A stretch of 64,000 bases of DNA from Eledone cirrhosa (lineage: Eukaryota), in assembly GCA_964016885.1 (NCBI GenBank), contig OZ024742.1:205778001-205842000 (forward strand), written 5' to 3'. Of this stretch, positions 9,355 through 62,941 are shown piece by piece. The stretch's first letter is position 1; every line of letters starts with the position of its first letter. The notes beneath the pieces are model-generated. The model searched no databases. It was not told the origin of the DNA and saw nothing but the letters and a program-made list of their open reading frames with translations. A program made the translations under genes and the position numbers.

Positions 9355-9640
9355 TTCATCATCATCATCATTTAATGCCCATTTTCCACTCTAGCATGGG
9401 TAAGATGGGCTGTCCATTTGGGAGAGATCTAGTCGGAGGACCATGTTTCACTTACGCAAGGCTGATTTTGGCTTGGTTTCTACAGCTGGATGCCCTTCTT
9501 AACGCCAACCACATTTACAGTGTGTGTTGGGTGCTTTTTGTCATGACACCTACATGACCACTGTACAGCGTGGACTGGGCACTTTTGTCTTGACATATAC
9601 ATGACCACTATGCAGGGTGGGCTGAGCGCTTTTGTTGATA
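9355..9640 (-). mobile_element. (GAT)n-tailed SINE-like repeat (family B) with internal 48-bp tandem units
   Basis: Plus strand catcatcatttaatgcccattttcca...ctacagctggatgcccttc.taacgccaaccac, then repeated accac..tacagtgtgg..tggg..ctttttgtc units. Related copies at 12300-12560, 28070-28400, 29370-29545, 39280-39600 and 50435-50715 (opposite strand). The 3' end resembles the RTE tail at about 6340. Confidence 0.7.
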
Positions 9641-38919: not shown

Positions 38920-40006
38920 AATAAAATAAAAATGGCGTAAACATTACAATAGGAGGAAACATGATAATAGTACCACTGATGATGTTGCAGATGTGCAATG
39001 AAAGCACTTTGTTAGACTATATATAGGTATTTATATCTGTATTTTTAACCGTTGGTCAGTCAATGATAAACATTGATTGCCAAATAAGTTAACTATGGAG
39101 ATATAAAAGATACAGAAGCGAAAACCAACCAAACAGTGACTGTGTTCTGTTATTATTTCTGGCAATATTATTACAACAATATGACCCTTCGCAAGTATAA
39201 CAATATATATATACACATATACATATATATATATATAATCACACACACACATATATATATATATATGTATGTATAAAATCATCATCATCATGACCGTTTA
39301 ACCTCCATTTTTCATGCTAGCATGTGTTAGATGAGTCGTCTTGTTGTGAGCAATGCCAGGTCAGGTGACTATGTCTTGTTCATACAGAACTGATTTTGGC
39401 TTGGCTTCTACAGCTAGATGCCCTTCCTAATGTCAACCACATTTACAGTGAGTATTGTGTGCTTTTTGTCATGACATCTACATGACCACTTTAGAGTCTG
39501 GCCTGGGCGCTTTTTGTCATGACATCTACACAACCACTTTACAGTGTGGGTTGGGTGCTTTTTGTTGTGACGCCTACATGACCACTTTACAGTGTGGACT
39601 GGAGGCCTCACTAGATGTATGCTTCAGCATACATCTAGTGAGGCCTCCAGCCTCGTAGGGGATGTATGGGAAGGTGGGGTGGTGCCTACTATATATATGC
39701 TTCAACTTCAGCCTGTGCCCATGGGAAGGTGGGTTTTCTGTATTGCTGCATAATACCAGAAATCTCGGTCCTGTGTCATTGTCTTTGAGAGGTGCAATTG
39801 GGCAAGGTCAGCTTTTATCACCTCATCCCAGTATATCAGCAGACTGGCCAGTCAATTTCCTGTCTGCTGGTATGCAAATCTGGCTGATCAGTGGATCTGC
39901 TAATATGCAAATCTGCCTGATCAGCTAGTCTGCTAATATGCAAATCAGGTCGATCAGTCACTGTATATCTTAGAAAATATCATATACTAGCTCTGACAGT
40001 TGTCAG

Positions 40007-40071
40007 GTGAACAGTGAACTGTATGATGAAGGGTAATACCCAGAAACATTAGTGTCTGCGGTTCTGTTTAC
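40007..40071 (+). ncRNA. Type I hammerhead ribozyme, copy 1 (core C3 deleted)
   Basis: GAACTGTA-(C)TGATGA-AGGGTAATACCCA-GAAAC-ATTAGT-GTC^-TGCGGTTC; stems I, II and III pair. Confidence 0.72.
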
Positions 40072-40446
40072 ATGCCAACACAAGAGCAAGAATGAGGGGC
40101 TCATTCTACTGACATGGCTTTAAAAATGAGGCTTGTTTGCATAACTGCAAACAAATCAAATATTATTATTAATATTTGAAAAACTTAAATTACATTTATT
40201 GTATTCAGCCATGTAGAGCGAAAATCTTTTTTTTTTAAATTTGAATATGGCAAAGCCGGCCATTGATCGCTTGTATACAGGAAACTGACTGGCCAGTCTG
40301 CTGATATGCAAATCTGGATGATCAGTAGGTCTGCTAATATGCAGATCTGACTGATTAGCCAGTCTGCTAATATGCAAATCAGGCCGATCAGTCACTGTAT
40401 ATTTTAGAAAATAGTATATATTTTCACTAGCTCTGACAGTTGGCAG

Positions 40447-40512
40447 GTGAACAGTGAACTGTACCGATGAAGGGTAATACCCAGAAACATTAGTGTCTGC
40501 AGTTCTGTTTAC
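40447..40512 (+). ncRNA. Type I hammerhead ribozyme, copy 2 (core U4 to C)
   Basis: GAACTGTA-CCGATGA-AGGGTAATACCCA-GAAAC-ATTAGT-GTC^-TGCAGTTC. Stem I extends via GTTGGCAGGTGAACAG / CTGTTTACATGCCAAC. Confidence 0.75.
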
Positions 40513-41777
40513 ATGCCAACACAAGAGCAAGAATGAGAGGCTCATTCTACTGACATGGCTTTGAAAATGAGGCTTGTTTGCATAATTGCAAACAAATCGA
40601 ATATTATTATTAATATTCGAAAAACTCAGATTACATTTATTGTATTCAGCCATGTAGAGCGAAAATTCTTTTTTTAAATTATATATATATATATTTCTTA
40701 ATTTATCCTTTTAATTGAGTCTAGCAAACCATATTATTCTTAGTATTTTCTTCACTCTAGCGGTTTTACATCCCTTGTGATATATGTATATATATGTGTT
40801 TGTCTCTCTTTATTATATTATATATATATGTGTGTGTGTATATGTATGTATGCTGTATGTGTATATGTAAGTATACACACACATAAACACACATATATGG
40901 AACTTTATAGAAGAAAGTCAAGATTTTATGAACTAGGTTACAATTATTTATATTAGTTAATTTAACTCTTGACATTTTAATTAAAATAACTTGCTATAAA
41001 AAAATTTCGAGGAGTAAGTTGAATTATTGAAAATATTAATCAAGAATGTTCTTAATTTGTAAAATAAATAGCTTAGATTTGTTTTTATTACACATTTTAT
41101 TTATTTTGTTCTTTAATGCAGAAAAAGAAAACAAAACATAATTGAGAATCCACAATGGAAATAAATGTATGCTTATCTTTAGAAATTTAACAGCCAGGAT
41201 TTGTTGTTAAAACATTTGAAACCAGGATAGAGAGAAAGTTTAGAATTTTCTATGATTCTACCATATTGATGATTTTTTATATGAAGATATACATCAAACT
41301 TAAACAAATAAAAATTCGGTGTTTTTACAGCTATTTTATTTTATTTTACATTTTTCTACCTTAAGAACAGTGTATTTAGCAGGACAGTGTATTTACCAGG
41401 ACAATGTATTTACCAGGATGACATGGTTGTAATCTATAGCTTTTACCCAAACAGCTTGGTACTGATCAAGTAATATTTGCAACTCAGCAAAGTGCCTCTA
41501 AAAAATTCTTGCTTTATCAACAGAAGGATCAGTTAAGTTAGACAAACTTGCTTTCAGCCAGCTTTTTTTAATAGGGTAGCACCCTGCTGAGATGAATCGA
41601 TGGCCTAGATTCAATTCTTGGTTGGAGACATTTGAGTTCACTTAGCCAGCTAATGCTCTCATAAAAGCATCACCATCACATAAGCCTATTCTCCTCCATT
41701 ATAATCCTGATGTCTCGTGTCTATGCAAGAAATTAATATCATGTATAATCACTTATGATACATATGGATTGACTATC

Positions 41778-43204
41778 AGTATACTTTTATTCCGTAACTT
41801 GAGCAATTTGCTGGTTGTTGATTGTGAGTTGGAGATTGGCATTGTTTTTATCAGTTGTCATACACTTTGTTTTGGAGATGTTGATGTGCAAGCCAGCTTC
41901 CAGCGAATGTTTGGCCAGTACATTCAGAAAGTCTTGCAGATCAGTTCTAGAGTAACTCATGATGGCCAGATCGTCTGCATAGCTAAGATTTGATAGGATT
42001 TTACCTCCTATTTGATAGCTAGAGGAGCATTTTTTTTCAGTAGATAAGTGCAGCTATTACTATACAGAAAAAAAGTGCTGATACTACATCCCCCTGCTTA
42101 ACTCCCTTCAAGATGTCTATACACCGTGTAGTTCCCAAATCTGTTTTTAAATATGCTGTTGAGTTGGTGTAAGTTTCTTTCAGTAGGTTGATGTATTTTT
42201 TGTTAATTGAGGTCTTGTTTAAGAGTTGACACAAGCTGGGCAATTTCACGTCAAAAGCTTTTGTGATGGCAATGAAGGTGATGTGCACAGGGTTGTTGAA
42301 TTCTATTGATTTCTCAATGATTTGTTCAATAGCTAGGATCTGCTCAATGGTGCCTCTTCCAGGTTGATACACAGCTTGTGGTTCAGGAAATGAGGCGTAA
42401 AGGTCTGACTTCACTCGTGCTGCAATGATACTCATGAAAAGCTTGTAAACATGACTCAATAGGCTGATAGGGCGATAGTTCCCACAATCAAATCTGCTAC
42501 ATTTTTTGTAGAGTACAACCATTAATGCTTTATTGAACACGCCTGGTGCTTTGATAATTGGTTCACCTCCAGCTTTGATGAATTCTGAATATATATTGTC
42601 CAGTCCAGGGCTTTTTCCTTGCTTCAAATTTTTACGGAGTTTGTATATCTCAGTCACAAACTATTATCCAACAACATTGGAATGGTTGCTGCGCAGTATT
42701 ACATTGCTCTAGGTTGGGCAGCTTTTAGCAAGAACAAGGAAGTACTAAACGAGTTTCCTATCATTTGAAGGATAAGATCTTTGATACTTACATCCTACCA
42801 GTTGTGTCTTGACTGTGTTAATTGGATGACAAGGTCACTTCAGAAGCGCTCTACATTCCAGATCCACATCATAAGATTCATGACTGTATCAGTGAGCTGC
42901 TTAACATTACCAGACTTAGACCAGTTACATCAATTGTCAAGTCAAGAGTACACAAACTATACGGTCATATAAAAAGATCAAGTCATGGTGTGAGTAGGTT
43001 ATGACTGGAAGGAAGGTTGGCTAGTAAGAGAAGCAGAGGCCGGCAGCCAAAACGATGGCTTGATAATGTCAACCTATGGATTGGACTTGATCTTTTCTCT
43101 TTAAACTGTGCTGTTACTGATCAAACTTTGTGGAAAACAATATCTCATGTTGATGTGCAGTCTGCAACTGGCAGAGTTTAGCATCAAAGTAGTATACTTT
43201 TATT
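41778..43204. mobile_element. RTE-clade LINE insertion with 5' inversion and 14-bp TSD
   Basis: RT core on minus at about 41792-42660 (GKSPGLDNI, CGNYRPISLLS, GVKQGDVVS, SYADD). RT 3' part on plus at 42660-43185 (LGWAAFSK, LYGHIKR, RSRGRQPKRWLD). TSD AGTATACTTTTATT at 41778-41791 and 43191-43204. Confidence 0.88.
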
Positions 43205-43264
43205 TATTTTAGTTATTTGACTGCAACTATGCCTAGGTAGTGCATTCAATGGTTTAGAACAGTA

Positions 43265-46200
43265 CAGAAATGAATTATCACGATACAGTACAGTATAGAC
43301 ATAAATTATCATCATATAATACAGTATAGACATGAAGTACAGTATAGTATAGACATGAATTACCATGATACATTACAGTATAGACATGAATTACCATGAT
43401 ACAGTATAGTATAGACATGAATTACCATGATACATTACAGTATAGACATGAATTACCATAATACAGTATAGTACAGACATGAATTACCATGATACAGTAT
43501 AGTATAGACATGAATTACCAAGATACATTACAGTATAGACATGAATTACTAGGATACAGAATAGTATAGACATGAATTACCATGATACAGTATAGTATAG
43601 ACATGAATTACCATGATACATTACAGTATAGACATGAATTACCATGATACAGTATAGACATGAATTACCAAGATACAGTATAGTATAGACATGAATTACC
43701 ATGATATAGTATATAGATGAATTACCAAGATACAGTATAGTAGAGACATGAATTACCAAGATATAGTATAGACATGAATTACCATGATACAGTATAGTAT
43801 AGGCATGAATTACCACGATATAGTACAGTAAAGTCATGAATTACCATGATACAGTATAGACATGAATTACCATGATACATTACAGTATAGACATGAATTA
43901 CCAAGATACAGTATAGTATAGACATGAATTACCATGATACAGTATAGACATGAATTACCATGATACATTACAGTATAGACATGAATTACCAAGATACAGT
44001 ATAGTATAGACATGAATTACCATGATACAGTATAGACATGAATTACCAAGATACAGTATAGTATAGACATGAATTACCATGATACAGTATAATATAGACA
44101 TGAATTACCATGATACAGTATAGACATGAATTACCAAGATACAGTATAGTATAGACATGAATTACCAAGATACAGTATAGTATAGACATGAATTACCATG
44201 ATACAGTATAGACATGAATTACCAAGATACAGTATAGTATAGACATGAATTACCAAGATACAGTATAGTATAGACATGAATTACCATGATACAGTATAGT
44301 ATAGACATGAATTACCAAGATAGGGTACAGTATAGACATGAATTATCAAGATACAGTACAGACATGAATTATCAAGATACAGTATAGTATAGACATGAAT
44401 TACCATGATACAGTATAGACATGAATTACCATGATAGAGTATAGTATAGACATGAATTACCATGATACAGTACAGTATAGACATAAATTACTATGATACA
44501 GTATAGTATAGACATGAATTACCATGATACGGTATAGACATGAATTACCAAGATACAGTATAGTATAGACATGAATTACCAAGATACAGTATAGTATAGA
44601 CATGAATTACCAAGATACAGTATAGACATGAATTACCAAGATACAGTATAGTATAGACATGAATTACCAAGATACAGTATAGACATGAATTACCAAGATA
44701 CAGTATAGTATAGACCTGAATTACCATGATACAGTATAGACATGAATTACCAAGATACAGTATAGTATAGACATGAATTACCATGATATAGTACAGTACA
44801 GACATGAATTACAATGATACAGTATAGACATGAATTACATGATACAATATAGTATAGACATGAATTACCATGATACAGTATAGTATAGACATGAATTACA
44901 TGATACAATATAGTATAGACATGAATTACATGATACAATATAGTATAGACATGAATTACATGATACAATATAGTATAGACATGAATTACATGATACAATA
45001 TAGTATAGACATGAATTACCAAGATACAGTATAGTATAGACATGAATTACCATGATACAGTATAGACATGAATTACCAAGATACAGTATAGTACAGACAT
45101 GAATTACAATGATATAGTACAGTACAGACATGAATTACAATGATACAGTATAGACATGAATTACATGATACAATATAGTATAGACATGAATTACCATGAT
45201 ACAGTATAGTATAGACATGAATTACAATGATACAGTTCAGTATAGACATTAATTACCATGATACAGTATAGACATGAATTACCATGATACAGTATAGTAT
45301 AGGCATGAATTACCATGATACAGTACAGTACAGACAGGAATTAGCATGATACAGTATAGTATAGATATTAATTACCATGATACAGTACAGTATAGATATT
45401 AATTACCATGATACAGTACAGTATAGACATGAATTACCATGATACAGTATAGTATAGACATGAATTACCAAGATACAGTACAGTATAGACATGAATTACC
45501 ATGATACAGTATAGTATAGACATGAATTACCATGATACAGTATAGTATAGACATGAATTACAATGATACAGTACAGTATAGACATGAATTATCATGATAC
45601 AGTACAGTATAGACATGAATTACCATGATACATTTCCGTATAGATATTAATTACCAACATACAGCATAGTTTAGAGATGAAATACCATGATACAGTACAG
45701 TATAGACATTAATTACCAAGAGACGGTATAGTATAGACATTAATTACCATGATACAGTACAGTACATACATGAATTACCATGATACAGTATAGACATGAA
45801 TTACCAAGATACAGTATAGTATAGACTTGAATTACCATGATACAGTGTAGTATAGACATGAATTGCCATGATACAGTAGAGTATAGACATGAATTACCAT
45901 GATACAGTATAATATAGACATGAATTACAATGATACAGTATAGTATAGACATGATTTGCCATGATACAGTACAGTATATTATAGACATGAATTGCCATGA
46001 TACAGTATAGTATAGACATGAATTACCATGATACAGTACAGACATGAATTACCAAGATACAGTATAGTATATACATGAATTACCATGATACAGTAGAGTA
46101 TAGACATGAATTACGAAGATACCATATAGTACAGACATGTTTTACAATGATACAATATAGTACAGACATGAATTGCCATGATACAGGACAGTAAAGTTAT

Positions 46201-47790
46201 GAAATACAATGATACAGTAGAGTACAGACAAGAATTACTATGATAAAGTACAGTATAGACATGAATTACCATGATACAGTATAGTATAGACATGAATTAC
46301 CATGATACAGTATAGTATAGACATGAATTACAATGATACAGTACAGTATAGACATGAATTACAATGATACAGTATAGTATAGACATGAATTACCATGATA
46401 CAGTATAGTATAGACATGAATTACAATGATACAGTACAGTATAGACATGAATTACAATGATACAGTATAGTATAGACATGAATTACCATGATACAGTATA
46501 ATATAGACATGAATTACCATGATGTAATACAGTATAGACATGAATTACCATGATACAGTACAGTACAGACATGAATTACCAAGATACAGTACAGTATAGA
46601 CATGAATTACCATGATACAGTATAATATAGACATGAATTACCAAGATACAGTATGGTATAGACATGAATTACCATGATACAGTATAATATAGACATGAAT
46701 TACCATGATACAGTACAGTAAAGTTATGAAATACAATGATACAGTAGAGTACAGACAAGAATTACCATGATAAAGTACAGTATAGACATGAATTACCATG
46801 ATACAGTATAGTATAGACATGAATTACCAAGATACAGTATAGTATAGACATGAATTACCGTGATACAGTATAGTATAGGCATGAATTACCATGATACAGT
46901 ATAGACATGAATTACCATGATACAGTACAGTACAGACATGAATTACCATGATACAGTACAGTGCAGACATGAATTACCATGATACAGTATAGTATAGACA
47001 TGAATTACCATGATACAGTATAGTATAGACATGAATTACCATGATACAGTATAGACATGAATTACCATGATACAGTATAGTACAGACATGAATTACCATG
47101 ATACAGTACAGTGCAGACATGAATTACCATGATACAGTATAGTATAGACGTGAATTACCATGATACAGTATAGTATAGACATGAATTACCATGATATAGT
47201 ATAATATAGACATGAATTACCATGATATAGTACAGTACAGACATGAATTACCATGATAAAGTACAGTATAGACATGAATTACCATGATACAGTATAGTAT
47301 AGACATGAATTACCATGATACAGTATAGTATAGACATGAATTACCATGATACAGTATAGTATAGACATGAATTACCATGATACAGTATAGTATAGACATG
47401 AATTACCATGATACAGTATAGTATAGACATGAATTACCATGATACAGTACAGTATAGACATGAATTACCATGATACAGTATAGTATAGACATGAATTACC
47501 ATGATACAGTATAACATAGACATGAATTACCATGATACAGTATAGTATAGACATGAATTACCATGATACAGTATAGACATGAATTACCAAGATACAGTAT
47601 AGTATAGACATGAATTACCATGATACAGTATAGTACAGACATGAATTACCATGTAGCAGTATAGTATAGGCATGAATTACCATGATACAGTATAGTATAG
47701 ACATGAATTACCATGATACAGTATAGTATAGACATGTATAGTAAAGTTCTGTTGAGTCATCAGTTACCAAGATACAGTACAGTAGTCATC
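43265..47790. repeat. Satellite/minisatellite, 31-bp unit GACATGAATTACCATGATACAGTATAGTATA with 26- and 30-bp variants, roughly 150 units
   Basis: Directly visible head-to-tail array with no unique spacers. Confidence 0.97.
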
Positions 47791-55440: not shown

Positions 55441-57069
55441 CGACCAGGCTGGCTGCCAAGGTGGTCTGCAGGTCCATAACACCCTAACTAGGTGAGGAGT
55501 TAAGTTCGGTGCAACTGGGTGTCGGCGTGTCCGGTGGATGTGAGGGGGCCGCACATGCAACCAGGCAGTTCTTCAACAGCTGCTCACCGGAACCGGCATC
55601 CAGGCATCTCATTGTCAAGCTTGAGGAATGCCTTTAAATGCATACGCTGGGACCACCTGCTTGAGGCCTGCTTCAGCCGAGCCCCCTCTGACTACCCGCT
55701 GGCCTACCTGTCGTATGGGGATCCGAGCATTCGCCTTGCTGCTGATACGGTCATACCTTCGGCCACGGGTCCAGCAGGGCGACCCTTTGGGCCCCCTCCT
55801 GTTTGCTCTTGGTATAGACCACATTGCCCGGAGTATCACGGCCCCTCTCAACGTTTTGTATCTGGATGATGCTACGTTGGGCGGGCCCGTAGAGACTGTC
55901 TGCCATGACCTACAATCGGTGGTTCCTGCCCTGGTGGGAATCGGTCTCCAGGTCAACTCGTCCAAGTCGGAGGTGGTGAATGTCAGCCACGATGCTGAGA
56001 GCTTTGCAGCCTCCGTCTCGGGCGTGCGGTCCATTCTCCACCAGGCCACTTTACCTGTCAGGTATGGCGGCCTTGGCCTCCGGTCCCTGATCTCACTGGC
56101 TTTCCCGGCGCTTTCGTCGGTAACCTCATGCCACATTCCTCGTCAGCAGGGCTCTCCAAAACACAATGGAACCCTTTGTGATCAGGAAACGTGAGGCCGC
56201 CTGTGAGACGTGGGACCGGCTGGGACTTAGCCCAGTAGATATCCCTCCTTCTCCCCCCCCCCCCCCTGCTGACGTCAAGTCCCCCCAGAACATTTGGGAT
56301 GCCATCCAGTGCAGCCTGGCTTCAGACAGGCTCACGTGCCAGCTCGACCAGCACCGCCTTACCTGTTTTCGTGCTGCCTCCAAACCCCACAGTGGTGCCT
56401 GGCTCCATACCTTGCCCTCCTTCCCCACTAGCACGCAGCTGGATAACAATAGCCTGCGCATCGGCGTTTCCTTGAGGCTTGGCCTCCGGATCTGCGAGCC
56501 ACACCAATGTCGCTGTGGATCCACTGTGGACTCTTTCGGCCTCCACCCGCTTTCCTGTCGCCACAGTGCCGGCCGCCTTCCACGCCATGCTGCCCTCAAC
56601 GAGGTCATAAAGCATGGCTTGGACGCTGCAGGCTTCCCTTCCCAGCTCGAGCTGGTGGGGATGGACCGAGGGGACGGCAAAAAGCCAGATGGCATGACCA
56701 TCTACCTGTTCCGCGGTGGAAAACCCCTCATCTGTGATGCCACTTGCACCGATACTTTCTCCAGCCGCAACCTGGTGCAGTCTGTGACTAACCCAGGTTC
56801 TGCTGCACGTCGGGCTGAGGAGGCCAAACTCTTCAAATACCGGTCGCTCTCCGACAGGTTTGCGGTTGTACTCTTGGCAGTAGGAGACTTCTGGGGTCCT
56901 CGGCCCTAGGACTACCTCCCTACTCATCATCATAGGCGCTGAGCTGGCCAGCCGCAGGTGTGAGCGCCGCAAGTTGGAATGGCTTTTCCAGCGCGTCTCC
57001 CTTGCCGTCTTCCGGGGAAACGCCTTCTCCATTCTGTCCGCCGGGGCTGTGAGGAAGCCACCAGTATGA
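55441..57069 (+). mobile_element. CRE-clade RLE retrotransposon, 5'-truncated and internally deleted
   Basis: RLAAKV, VQLGVGVSGGCEGAAHA, VQQGDPLGPLLFAL, YLDDATLGG, QATLPVRYGGLGLR, CRCG...HPLSC, RHAALNEVIK...GDGKKPDGMT, CDATC, GNAFSIL. Confidence 0.9.
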
Positions 57070-58234: not shown

Positions 58235-59025
58235 AATGTAGTGGCTGAGATGGTCGCTTGGTAGCTAGCAGTTGCCTCCCCTTAACAACCCTTCAGGGAA
58301 GGGAGGCAAAAATACACCCGGACACAGCCACAGGTTCACACACTCTTTTTGGACCACGGACATGAACAGACGTGGAAAGACCCGCTCCTCAAAATATTGA
58401 CGTTGTAGGAAATTTACTAAATTATTGCATTAAATAAAATGATTGTTAGACTTGATTGTGCATTTATTTATTCGACAAAGAGAAACATCACTTTTCTTTA
58501 TTGGCGACCCTGACGATAAAGAATGAAAACGCAGCCTATTGGAGTCCGAAATTCTTTTTAACGGCAATGTGGAATGGCTTAACATTTGGAATGTCCGAAT
58601 CACTTAGCGTAAGTCCATAAAATTCATTATATTCCATTTGTTATAGCACGCATACAGACAAACACAAAAATACAACACACAACACAAAAAAAAAAAAAAA
58701 AAAAAAAAGGATTTCTCTGGAAATAGAATTTTGCTTCCAACATTCTGTGGAAATTACAAATGGAGATATTTCGTTTTCCCGCGTTCAGCCTGTCTTCTCC
58801 AATCCCAGCCATCTGATTGGCTGCATCGTGCCTCATGACACGGACACATTTTTAAATCAGCCATCTTGGATTATCTTACCATCAATTTTCATGGAAAATG
58901 ATTTTTTTTTATTATTAAAATTTTCTTTGGAATATTTTTTTTTAAAGAAAAAAATTACCAGCAATCAGCAGCAACACCTGGCTAACTATTGACCAACACC
59001 AAAAAGTCATCAAATACGTGGCACC

Positions 59026-59811
59026 ATGAGTCAACATCATTTGCCGTCCTTCGCAGGCGACATCAAGTTGTGGTTTGCGCAGCTGGAATGTTTCTTCGAA
59101 TTGACGAGGACAAAGGAACAGCATAGGCTGAAGGTCCTGATCAATGGCCTACCTGTTTCCTTGGCATTCTCGGTGAGGGACGTTGTGACGGATTTAGACG
59201 CCGACGTTACCTACGGCTCATTAAAAAAAGAAATCCTTCGCCGAAATACCAAGTCGGTAGAGAGCCGTTTTCGGGAGTTGTTGGACGATGCTCAAATGGG
59301 TGACAGGAAGCCGAGCTCCTATTTGCGACATTTGCGGGAGTTGAGCGACTCTCAGGGGATTGACACCCCCTTCATAAAGCAACTTTTTTTCTCACGCTTA
59401 CCACCAAGTGCGCAAAGAATATTGGTCAATAGTTTAGAGAAGGATTCATTAGAGCAACTTGCCGCGTCCGCGGATAGGATACTTGAGGTGGACTCGAACA
59501 GCAATCAGCATAATGCTTATGTGGCTTCAGCTTGCGTCCCTCCACGCAGTTCTTCTGTGGCCGACGGCAAACTGTTGGAGTTGATTGAAGCTCTCACCAA
59601 AAAGGTAGAGGATTTGACGGTACATCAGAGAGAGCCTTCTCAACGTTTGAGGTATCGTTCGCCGCTGTCCTCTATTCATCGCCAGCACTACAACGCAGGC
59701 AACAATAATTCTTCGTTGTGTTGGTACCATGCTAACTTCGGCAGTAGGGCGCAACGTTGTCGCACGCCCTGTGATTATAAGAGATCGGGAAACGCAAAGC
59801 AGAGCCACTAG
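59026..59811 (+). CDS. gag: Gypsy Gag (261 aa)
   Basis: LPSF...WFAQLE N-terminus, [15 protein letters not shown], and [18 protein letters not shown] knuckle typical of this Gypsy lineage. Confidence 0.92.
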
Positions 59812-62800
59812 AAGCGGCTAGTGAACTCTGGGAAAACCGACCGAACCGCCATCTTTTCGTATACGACCTGCGGTCAAAAAAATATTTCCTTGTCGATACT
59901 GGCGCGTCGCTGAGTATTTGGCCTGTCAGTTATCTCAAAAAAAGCCCAGCCGAAGCAGATATAAATCTACGAGCAGTCAATCACACGGCCATTCGAACGT
60001 ATGGGCAAATTTCGCTTCCGCTTCGGTTAAAAAATTTGCGGCGTGATTTGAGGTGGAAGTTTACTGTCGCCGACTTGCCATACGCCATTTTGGGAGCGGA
60101 TTTTCTCCACCATTTTTCCTTGTTGGTGGACATTCGCAGACAACGCCTTGTTGATTCTGAAACAGGCCTTTCTTTCGAGGGTTCAGAGCCGGACGTCGCC
60201 ACCGTCAGCCCTTCCTTTTTCTTGGCTGAAGTGGGCAACCAGTATCAAAGCCTGCTACATTCATTCCCTCAGTTGACGCAGGGAAAGTTAAGAATAACTA
60301 GCCCGGATCATGCGATTGAACACTTCATATCCACTACAGGTCCACCTGTTTTCTCACGTCCTCGAATATTGTCTACAGAGAAGTTGAAAGCTGCACGCCT
60401 TGAATTCGACCACATGCTGGAATTGGGAATAATTCGGCGCTCCACAAGTCCTTGGGCATCGCCTCTGCATATGGTACCTAGATCTTCTGGGGATTGGAGA
60501 CCGACGGGTGACTACCGACGCTTAAACGCGATTACTGTGCCTGACCGTTATCCAATCCCGCATTTGCAGGATTTTGCGTCGTCATTGCAGGGTTGCAGAA
60601 TCTTTTAAAGCTTGATTTGATCCGCGCTTATAACCAAATTCCGGTTAACGAGGAGGATATCCCAAAGACTGCTATTGCCACTCCTTTCGGATCGTTCGAG
60701 TTCCTCACTATGCCTTTCGGCCTTAGAAACGCTGCAAGTACCTTCCAACGATTTATGGATGATATTACTCGGGGCCTGGATTTTGTGTACACGTATATCG
60801 ACGACGTGTTGATTGCTAGTTCTTCCCCTCAGCAGCATTCAAAGCATCTGGATCTCGTATTTCGACGCTTACAGAGATATAATGTTCGAATTAATGCTTC
60901 CAAGTGTGTTTTCGGCTCGACTTCACTAACATTTTTAGGCCATCTGATTGACGCCGACGGTATTCGACCTCTTCCTGAGAAGGTTAAGGCAGTATCGGAT
61001 TTGCCTCCGCCAAGTTCACTGCGTCAATTGCGTCAATTCCTGGGCCTTGTAAATTTTTATAGGCGATTCGTACCTGGTTGTTCCAAATTGCTGTTCTCGT
61101 TGACAGAGATTTTTAAGGGTTGCCGGCGTAAGAATATGGACATTTCCTTAAATGAAACGCAGCTTGATGATTTTAAAAAAGTGAAAAAGGCGTTAGCAAA
61201 CGCGTCTTTGCTCGTCCACCCAGTACCCAACGCCGAGCTATCGCTCTGTGTTGATGCTTCGGATAGCGCCGTGGGCGCAGTCTTACAGCAGAAGGGTGAT
61301 GGGGTACAGCAACCACTCGAGTTCTTTTCGAGGAAGTTAAAGCCTGCAGAAACTCGCTATAGCACCTTTGGAAGGGAGCTATTAGCAATTTATTTATCAG
61401 TGAAACATTTTGCTCATGTACTTGAAGGTAGAACATTCACCATTTTCACTGATCATAAACCCTTGACGTTTGCTCTTCGAACTAAGGCAGACAAATACTC
61501 GCCCAGAGAAACGAGACATCTGGACTTCATCTCACAGTTCACGAACGACATTCAACATATTCCGGGTTCTTTGAATACAGCGGCCGATGCGCTGTCTCGC
61601 CTGCCGATCGCATCGATTTCGTCTTCCGAGGAGATAGATTTACATCGAATGGCAGCTGCCCAACCCACTCTCGAATCGTTGGATGTTACATCGCCAGAGT
61701 TTGTACATTGCAAACTGAAATACATTCCGATCTCAACTGCTGACGGACAGATACTGTGTGATGTTTCGTTGGACTCACCACGACCTCTAGTCCCAGTGGA
61801 ACATCGACGAACTGCGTTTCTCGCTTTACATGGCATTTCTCACCCAGGAGTATCAGCCTCAGTAAAACTCATAACAGCCAGATTTTTCTGGCCTGGTATG
61901 AGACGTGACATTGCTGCTTGGTGTCGTTCCTGTGTCGCTTGCCAACAAGCGAAAGTTCATAGACATGTTAAGGCTCCTCTCGGAACCTTCACCTGCCCCG
62001 ATGCAAGATTTCGTCACATTCATGTGGACATCGTCGGCCCGTGGCCGGTTAGTCGTGGTTTTTCGTATCTTTTGACGATTGTTGACCGTTTTTCGCGTTG
62101 GCCTGAAGCCGTCCCTATAACAGATATCACCGCCGAAACCACAGCCCGTACCCTCGTATCTTCGTGGATCGCTCGTTTCGGTGTACCAACCACCATAACA
62201 ACGGATCGTGGTCGTCAATTCGAGTCTAACCTCTTCCGAGAGCTAACTCAAATCCTGGGGGCTATTCGAATAAGAATCACGGCTTACCACCCAGCCTCAA
62301 ACGGAATGGTGGAAAGATTCCACAGGCAGCTCAAAGCCTCCTTAAGGGCTTCCATGGACTCTTCACGTTGGAGCGAGTACCTACCCATTGTATTGTTGGG
62401 TATTCGGTCGACGGTAAAGGTGGACCTTGGGTTCTCCTCTGCCGAATTAGTTTATGGTACGCCTCTGACGTTACCGGGGCAAATGCTGGCCCCTTTTGAC
62501 CTGACTTCGCAGGACCCCGCTTCCTACGTGTCCCGGCTTCACTCTTATTTCAAGGATCTACCACCGATGGGCACTAGGAAGCAGACTGTAAAAACTGCCG
62601 TCCCAAGGGATATTGCCTTGTGGACCCATGTGTTCGTTAGAGACGACGCCGTGAGACCCCCTCTTCAACGGCCGTACTCTGGACCCTATCGTGTGCTTGC
62701 TCGCACAGACAAACATTTCACACTGGACATTCGGGGTTCCAGGGAAACGGTTTCCGTTGATCGTCTCAAACGAGCAAACCTGGACAATGACACAATGACA

Positions 62801-62941
62801 CTTGAAACTCAAATGCCCCCCTCTTTTTCTTTGGCACACAGGCCTATTTCTTCCCCTCCCCCACCATCAACACACAGAACTACGACCCGTTCTGGGCGAA
62901 GGGTGCATTGGCCCCGTAAGCTATGCAGTAATATAAACTGA
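59790..62941 (+). CDS. pol: Gypsy Pol (protease, RT, RNase H, integrase), entered by a probable -1 frameshift; one 1-nt deletion at about 60607
   Basis: FLVDTGA and ILGADFL (PR); [28 protein letters not shown] (RT); DAS, ELLAI, TDHKPL, ADALSR (RH); H-H-C-C, HVD, TDRG, VERFH, GPY (IN). Confidence 0.93.

Follow-up and report, generated by a model that had tools for sequence, protein, structure and literature searches.

Metazoan non-LTR retrozymes (Cervera and de la Peña 2020, PMC7229834) are, in the available text of that paper, short non-coding units arranged head to tail, each with one type I hammerhead whose helix III is weak and near-palindromic, and they occur as dispersed monomers and dimers in genomes that hold Penelope-like elements (PLEs). 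In a preprint, Li, Clavereau and Pollet (2026, bioRxiv 10.64898/2026.07.22.740005) make the case for regarding animal retrozymes as non-autonomous PLE sequences, and a 2020 review treats retrozymes as seemingly promoterless, with read-through transcription assumed (PMC7761336). Neptune-like PLEs carry hammerheads in their pseudo-LTRs, near the 3' part of the element, and the available portions of three papers describe 5' truncation, partial tandems, inverted 5' copies, an optional tail of 30-40 bp and AT-rich or (TA)n targets (PMC4209133, PMC8557442, PMC11167929). Partial tandems, inverted 5' copies, the 30-40 bp optional tail and AT-rich targets are given as the PLE signature in excerpts of PMC8557442, where the function of the hammerhead in PLEs is called unclear; the tail is the segment between two reverse-transcription start sites (PMC11167929, in excerpt). 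Hammerhead repeats with a promoter of their own are on record in the accessible part of PMC2220036, where newt satellite 2 is given an snRNA-type Pol II promoter and the schistosome repeats one for Pol III.

We analyzed a 64,000-nucleotide stretch of the Eledone cirrhosa genome (contig OZ024742.1, positions 205,778,001 to 205,842,000; hereafter the window) and searched the 3.0-Gb genome for related sequences. The window contains a mutated and probably dead insertion, a partial dimer of a 441-bp repeat family (family A) that likely moves as a non-coding passenger of Penelope-like retrotransposons. The two direct repeats of about 441 bp proposed in the initial annotation align with 91.5% identity across 390 bases; a 31-bp inverted piece at the 5' end of the pair had been overlooked. 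Unit coordinates (q) are the window position minus 40235. The features are as follows:

39833..39863, minus strand: inverted fragment of 31 bp, equal to unit positions 42-72, capping the 5' end as a PLE-type inverted 5' piece
39859 to about 40236-40241, plus strand: copy 1, truncated at its 5' end (starting at unit position ~58) and ending in a tail and T-run
39862..39958, plus strand: three 33-bp subrepeats of copy 1
39872, 39905 and 39938: octamers ATGCAAAT of copy 1
40005..40072, plus strand: hammerhead 1, with an extended stem I and C3 deleted, predicted dead, predicted cut after 40056
40016-40023: 5' strand of stem I, copy 1
40023-40029: core of copy 1, ATGATGA, with C3 deleted
40201..40236, plus strand: tail of copy 1, ~35 bp, and T-run, a segment that is optional at the 3' ends of the family
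40236 to about 40676-40680, plus strand: copy 2, a complete 441-bp unit
40295..40392, plus strand: three 33-bp subrepeats of copy 2
40306 and 40372: octamers ATGCAAAT of copy 2
40339: octamer variant ATGCAGAT in the middle subrepeat of copy 2
40371..40425, plus strand: predicted U6/snRNA-type promoter
40371-40382: extended octamer TATGCAAATCAG of the promoter block
40387-40392: ATCAGT of the promoter block, resembling a host U1/U2/U4 element at -56 to -58
40414-40425: TATA-like box of the promoter block
40447..40512, plus strand: hammerhead 2, with an extended stem I, U4 changed to C and A·A at 10.1/11.1, predicted dead or impaired, predicted cut after 40497
40456-40463: 5' strand of stem I, copy 2
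40464-40470: core of copy 2, CCGATGA, with U4 changed to C
40642..40675, plus strand: tail of copy 2 and a T7 run, a possible Pol III terminator

A (TA)n stretch lies directly 3' of the copy 2 tail (about 40680-40694), no target-site duplication is evident at the window insertion, and a 184-codon antisense frame in the window has no Pfam match.

In its sequence the family corresponds to the metazoan non-LTR retrozymes, with the same kind of unit, hammerhead, dispersal and PLE-holding genome. It departs from them in an octamer-TATA block that resembles host U6 promoters, in the A·A at 10.1/11.1 and in consisting mostly of 1 to 1.5 units with PLE-type inversions. Like the insertions of Neptune-like PLEs, family A copies show 5' truncation, partial tandems, common inverted 5' pieces, an optional tail of ~35 bp, (TA)n targets and a hammerhead toward the 3' part; unlike those elements they have no ORF, and the 4 bp of stem II are flanked on either side by an unpaired base. 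From these features we assign the family, with high confidence, to the known class of animal retrozymes as a non-autonomous PLE derivative. The class itself is already known, the window copy being a likely dead example of it. Our literature search, with subscription papers and supplements mostly outside its reach, found no paper on cephalopod retrozymes.

All ribozyme motifs named in the initial annotation were found, including both predicted cuts, which lie 441 nt apart, and the two distinct core lesions. A long extension of stem I had been described for copy 2; it is there, but it does not distinguish that copy, as copy 1 has one too. Both copies also contain A-GGGT-AAT-ACCC-A, GAAAC and ACATTAGTGT, and the CUGANGA, GAAA and NUH core elements together with three helices give the arrangement of a type I hammerhead. 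An initial motif scan gave no match because the window cores are mutated. The genome does hold intact cores, as the annotation had proposed to check: exact copies of a 37-nt intact core number 167, and those of a 35-nt core spanning both subfamilies 1,278 (0 for the reversed-pattern control in each case). The 5' halves of the core occur as tandem pairs 52 times, and both cores are fully intact in 6 of 30 tandem pairs read, the window's own two being damaged. Mean divergence from the commonest base per column is 4.3% over 177 copies. The word relic suits the decayed window copy, but the family itself is large and some of its sister families look young.

Core columns are 92-99% conserved in copies that had been chosen via a different site. 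Four subfamily changes fall in the ribozyme region (q223, 241, 275 and 276), and by our reading each of them either leaves pairing intact or is located in loop II. Stems I and II are paired by different bases in families A, B, D and H, all of which have a palindromic or near-palindromic stem III, so that the helices covary between sister families. Diverged families have kept core and helices, with compensating changes, and this speaks for selection on the fold. The non-canonical A·A at 10.1/11.1, pointed out from the window alone, is present in 97-98% of family A copies. The usual but not universal G10.1-C11.1 closing pair is absent in family A and also in B, which has U·U, and is G-C in H. 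A G-C at this position is called highly conserved in hammerheads in the available part of PMC4209133, and U·U is reported there for an axolotl retrozyme in that of PMC7229834. Several of the genome's ribozyme families have a mismatch at 10.1/11.1.

Comparison with the Rfam hammerhead models, which had been suggested as a check, turned out negative for the window and for two intact family A copies. Rfam misses families A, B, D and G; family H matches HH9 at 37-41 bits (E about 2e-7; gathering score 52). In computed folding the family A monomer takes up its catalytic fold with a probability of about 1e-5, at a cost of ~6 kcal/mol relative to the best fold, because the core pairs with loop III. 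The near-palindromic stem III segment noted earlier can pair with itself over 10 bp at a computed -8.8 kcal/mol, and a double hammerhead built by hand reaches -46.8 kcal/mol against a dimer minimum of -50.7 kcal/mol, both rough values. These models fit a dimer route of cleavage such as that in the accessible description of PMC4209133. In dimer cleavage assays covered by the available preprint text, one of nine retrozyme dimers was cut (bioRxiv 10.64898/2026.07.22.740005).

Families B and D came to light in a scan that required pairing, and G and H through a pattern without that requirement. Family B (for example L021:645-800, L336 and L536) looks like a young sister family, 19 of 40 scored copies being identical over 160-161 bp; in the copies read (TA)n lies inside the unit, L536 is an array of several ~430-bp units, and the unit checked has no T-run longer than 4. 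Family H, which like B appears young, has 466-bp tandem and inverted units of 98-99% identity with a G-C-closed hammerhead (L539, L548).

Insertion anatomy was read from 302 family A copies that contain the 5' end of the unit, a sample and not a census. Copy ends were mapped by anchored alignment; nhmmer mapping over-extended through hairpins. The unit's own 3' end lies upstream in 224 of these copies (161 of 215 and 63 of 87), and the remaining 78 fell below the cut-off and were excluded from end counts; among the first 108 copies, many of those below it are preceded by an inverted piece. Among the 222 copies with a measurable 3' end, 121 end at q398-412, 85 at q426-445 and 5 between, and (TA)n or (CA)n directly follows in 140. 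As to the linkage to Penelope ORFs that the annotation had proposed to look for, copies join their own tail rather than such an ORF (224 of 302), and the 302-copy sample contains no family-wide junction with an RT and GIY-YIG ORF between pseudo-LTRs. PLE protein matches occur in 20 of the 302 anchored records. The three such neighbors that were read comprise one element with its own 3' end and ribozyme, one inverted fragment and one direct junction (L394), in which the GIY-YIG ORF end of another PLE family is fused to family A at about q119. We rejected L394 as evidence for a partner, as a one-off chimera whose junction is present in 1 of 20 copies of that ORF end.

The genome holds RT and GIY-YIG ORFs with CX2-5CxxC linkers, which are candidate drivers; in excerpts of PMC8557442 such linkers are tied to Neptune and possibly to microsatellite targeting. 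No sequence shared with an autonomous partner was found in 40 GIY-YIG loci or in 20 copies of another PLE family, and the autonomous PLEs read here differ from family A in lacking the octamer and in their ribozymes, some of which have UUGANAA cores. The 3' regions of the Neptune-like PLEs L081, L087, L099 and L100 contain hammerhead variants with UUGANAA-type cores and an ACCGGU stem III. The family is non-coding in this sample and, by its insertions, would be mobilized by PLEs. The annotation had set a retrozyme against a Penelope pseudo-LTR, and while retrozyme is retained the opposition is not: given the PLE anatomy and the preprint's view of animal retrozymes as non-autonomous PLE sequences, the two are not true alternatives. 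Its overall interpretation is otherwise supported, and the outcomes it had named as counting against it (no intact cores, no covariation, universal linkage to Penelope ORFs) were mostly decided in its favor. Within the unit, an (ATT)n stretch at q368-374 is often broken by inserts of 92-376 nt (e.g. L167, L185, L394) that look like one SINE family; they differ between laps but vary in length, and so were read as separate later insertions and left out of the template question.

The octamers, initially ascribed to a possible POU-driven internal promoter, are real, but we interpret them rather as one component of an upstream promoter of U6 type. Five of six subrepeats do carry the perfect octamer at the positions listed, but the middle ATGCAGAT, which had seemed the exception, is the family norm (135 copies vs 8 with ATGCAAAT), so that it is copy 1 of the window that is unusual at that site. 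The octamer of the third subrepeat, the ATCAGT and the TATA-like box point to a predicted start at about 40445, 2 bases 5' of stem I. As a yardstick we used host genes of the same genome, namely five Pol III promoters (three U6 types, the best U6atac and MRP) and nine Pol II promoters (four U1, three U2 and two U4). Near-identical array copies, U6 and U6atac matches with retrocopy-like flanks and RNase P, whose start is uncertain, were left out; the RNase P upstream region has a Pol II-type TCAGT motif and no octamer.

The host promoters split cleanly by motif (L430-L432, L483, L501, L455-L457, L470-L475, L482, L491-L492). TATG(C/G)(A/T)AAT(T/G)AG is present at -76 to -78 in all five Pol III promoters, each of which also has a TATA box at -30; no Pol II promoter among the nine has an octamer within 100 bp. 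YCAGY at -56 to -58 is found in 9/9 Pol II and 0/5 Pol III promoters, the U1, U2 and U4 genes having TCAGT at about -57 plus a TATA-like box. Three genome patterns combining octamer, TATA and CUGANGA gave 1,505, 360 and 39 matches (overlapping sets), with 0 in controls; the 100 matches listed for one of them were, by our own count, 68 of family A, 18 of D and 14 of B. The order octamer, TATA, ribozyme is kept in at least six hammerhead families (A, B, D, F, G and H), and the extended TATGCAAATNAG octamer and TATA box persist in six families whose remaining sequence has diverged. As these families probably share ancestry, this is a conserved layout and not six independent captures. One apparent octamer family, at L279, was discarded, being family A's own octamer adjoining another ribozyme.

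The usual family A box is GCATATAT or TCATATAT (C-ATATAT), weaker than that of the host, while GTATATAT, as in the window, is rare within the family (6 copies). Spacing from octamer to TATA is 41-43 in A, B, D, G and H, 47 in F and 46-48 in host genes, and family D lacks the Pol II-type element. The TATA score alone was equaled by 8 of 81 control octamers, several of them stray B or D copies; the 0/124 null for the promoter layout is partly circular, since the octamer itself prompted the test, and the promoter models were built on only five Pol III and nine Pol II host promoters. Judged from motif content and placement, the octamer-TATA block probably works as a promoter. Its position upstream of a hammerhead is the new part, undescribed in the literature we found; no paper linking hammerhead repeats to an octamer-TATA promoter came up in a search that mostly could not reach subscription papers and supplements.

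The block shares with type 3 Pol III promoters (U6, H1, MRP) an octamer and TATA box upstream of the start, here a predicted one, the octamer being the same extended form as in the host genes, and it is as compact as H1 in the accessible description of PMC11340601. It differs in a spacing 4-5 bp shorter in five of the six families and, in family A, in the added Pol II-type element and the triplicated octamer module. With newt satellite 2 and the schistosome Sm-alpha repeats it would have in common a hammerhead repeat with its own promoter, here a predicted one (PMC2220036, in its available part); unlike them it has a compact octamer (-73) and TATA (-30), similar to host U6 and MRP, in several families. 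The candidate in six families bears on how retrozymes are transcribed and on what the hammerhead does in Penelope-like elements, and the start site, polymerase, cleavage and circle formation are directly testable on natural copies, including those of families B and H.

We favor the following account. At a locus whose upstream promoter is complete, transcription would begin near unit position 210, where stem I starts; the machinery would probably be Pol III or of snRNA type, and it would sometimes read through into the next unit. Two hammerheads may then pair via their near-palindromic stem III and cut at GUC, which would release a 441-nt monomer, possibly circularized. A PLE RT/GIY-YIG protein, probably Neptune-like, would nick (TA)n DNA, and reverse transcription would begin at one of the two sites that flank the tail. 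Copying for more than one lap would rebuild the promoter in front of the ribozyme; an upstream promoter is absent from its own transcript and could not otherwise be passed on. As a whole, the retroposon family with its PLE spread, U6-like promoter and ribozyme/circle mechanism seems to us the probable explanation. It is a bolder and doubtful proposal that at least six hammerhead retroposon families captured a host U6-type promoter, with the ribozyme making the circle and PLE copying over more than one lap rebuilding promoter and ribozyme. If true, the presence of hammerheads in PLE-related elements would be concretely explained, and these repeats would be a source of short Pol III promoters native to the host animal.

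Copy ends were examined for traces of the template. Copy 5' ends seemed to pile up at the cut site, with 12 in q261-274 among the first 85 copies, 2 among the next 76 and 6 of 63 in the third set, and this signal was rejected on replication alone (p=0.48); the pooled value (p=0.005) still counts the discovery set, and a stall at the stem I hairpin would look no different. Likewise, an excess of ends at q197-213, around the predicted start, had p=0.003 for the first 161 copies but was then lost, with 1 end in the pre-specified set (p=0.83) and p=0.85 in 21 new dimers. Upstream laps shorten smoothly; 27 of 224 start before q197, 63 of 224 reach 5' beyond the cut site, and 17 of the 21 new dimers extend 5' of the predicted start. 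A linear RNA begun there in a dimer could not yield laps that extend 5' of that start; possible sources of such laps are a circle, longer arrays, read-through from the host, template jumps, or a start that was wrongly predicted. Of 460 comparisons at subfamily sites between the two laps of one locus, 399 agree, whereas random pairing gives 0.53±0.04. A circle may be the usual template, a suggestion we hold with slightly more doubt than belief.

The strongest competitor keeps the family and its mobilization by PLEs and replaces the circle with a linear multimer, produced by short arrays, host read-through or template jumps, the family A ribozyme cutting rarely or never. The A·A at 10.1/11.1, the misfolding of the monomer and the failure of the cut-site pile-up to replicate are all in keeping with it, as are the known arrays (three anchors in L412, several ~430-bp units in family B at L536) and the 63 of 224 upstream laps that pass 5' of the cut, each full unit requiring an uncut or religated core. 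It sits poorly with the compensating changes by which core and helices are conserved across diverged families, and full dimers with two unit starts are uncommon among the copies read; we regard it as unlikely, yet a serious contender. Far less probable is an ordinary pseudo-LTR, in which case the unit would be the 3' terminus of an autonomous Penelope-like element and the copies with the ORF would lie outside the sample. Every insertion feature is PLE-like, 20 of 302 anchored records have PLE protein matches, and 78 of 302 copies lack their own tail upstream, but 224 of 302 run into their own tail, and among the three PLE neighbors read the sole direct junction occurs just once in 20 copies of the ORF end concerned. 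The missing Rfam match in the window speaks for a local tandem duplication or a satellite in which a hammerhead-like motif arose by chance; this reading is refuted by the dispersed exact cores (167 and 1,278, controls 0) and by covariation across families, and its probability is negligible.

A further question is what the octamers do. They might form a POU enhancer for Pol II or a Pol II snRNA-type promoter as in newt satellite 2, whose promoter includes an octamer, or be an inherited motif without a role. Family A has ATCAGT, a match to the Pol II snRNA element of the host, at the appropriate distance; five of six families fall 4-5 bp short of the spacing in host Pol III genes; the family B unit checked has no T-run above 4; and Pol III would halt at the family A T-run and so copy the promoter poorly. 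Among the genes examined, however, a proximal octamer marks only Pol III genes, the extended TATGCAAATNAG and TATA are kept in six diverged families, D lacks the Pol II element and F has the host spacing. We give such roles roughly a minority chance, lower than that of the linear multimer, and retain the U6-type promoter as the preferred reading.

Several other features were observed within the window. A degenerate hammerhead-like motif (CTGATGA ... GAAAG) at 38976-39020 is similar to motifs of another repeat family in the flanks of L082. A 48-bp repeat is present in 3.5 copies at 39436-39652, with a similar unit at 9536-9635, and is adjoined by a near-perfect 56-nt hairpin at 39597-39652. A 31-bp satellite of ~148 copies occupies 43261-47736. 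Frames for an LTR-retrotransposon-type RT, RNase H and integrase lie at 58993-62941, and two more RT fragments at 42037-42660 (minus strand) and 55625-56194 (plus strand).
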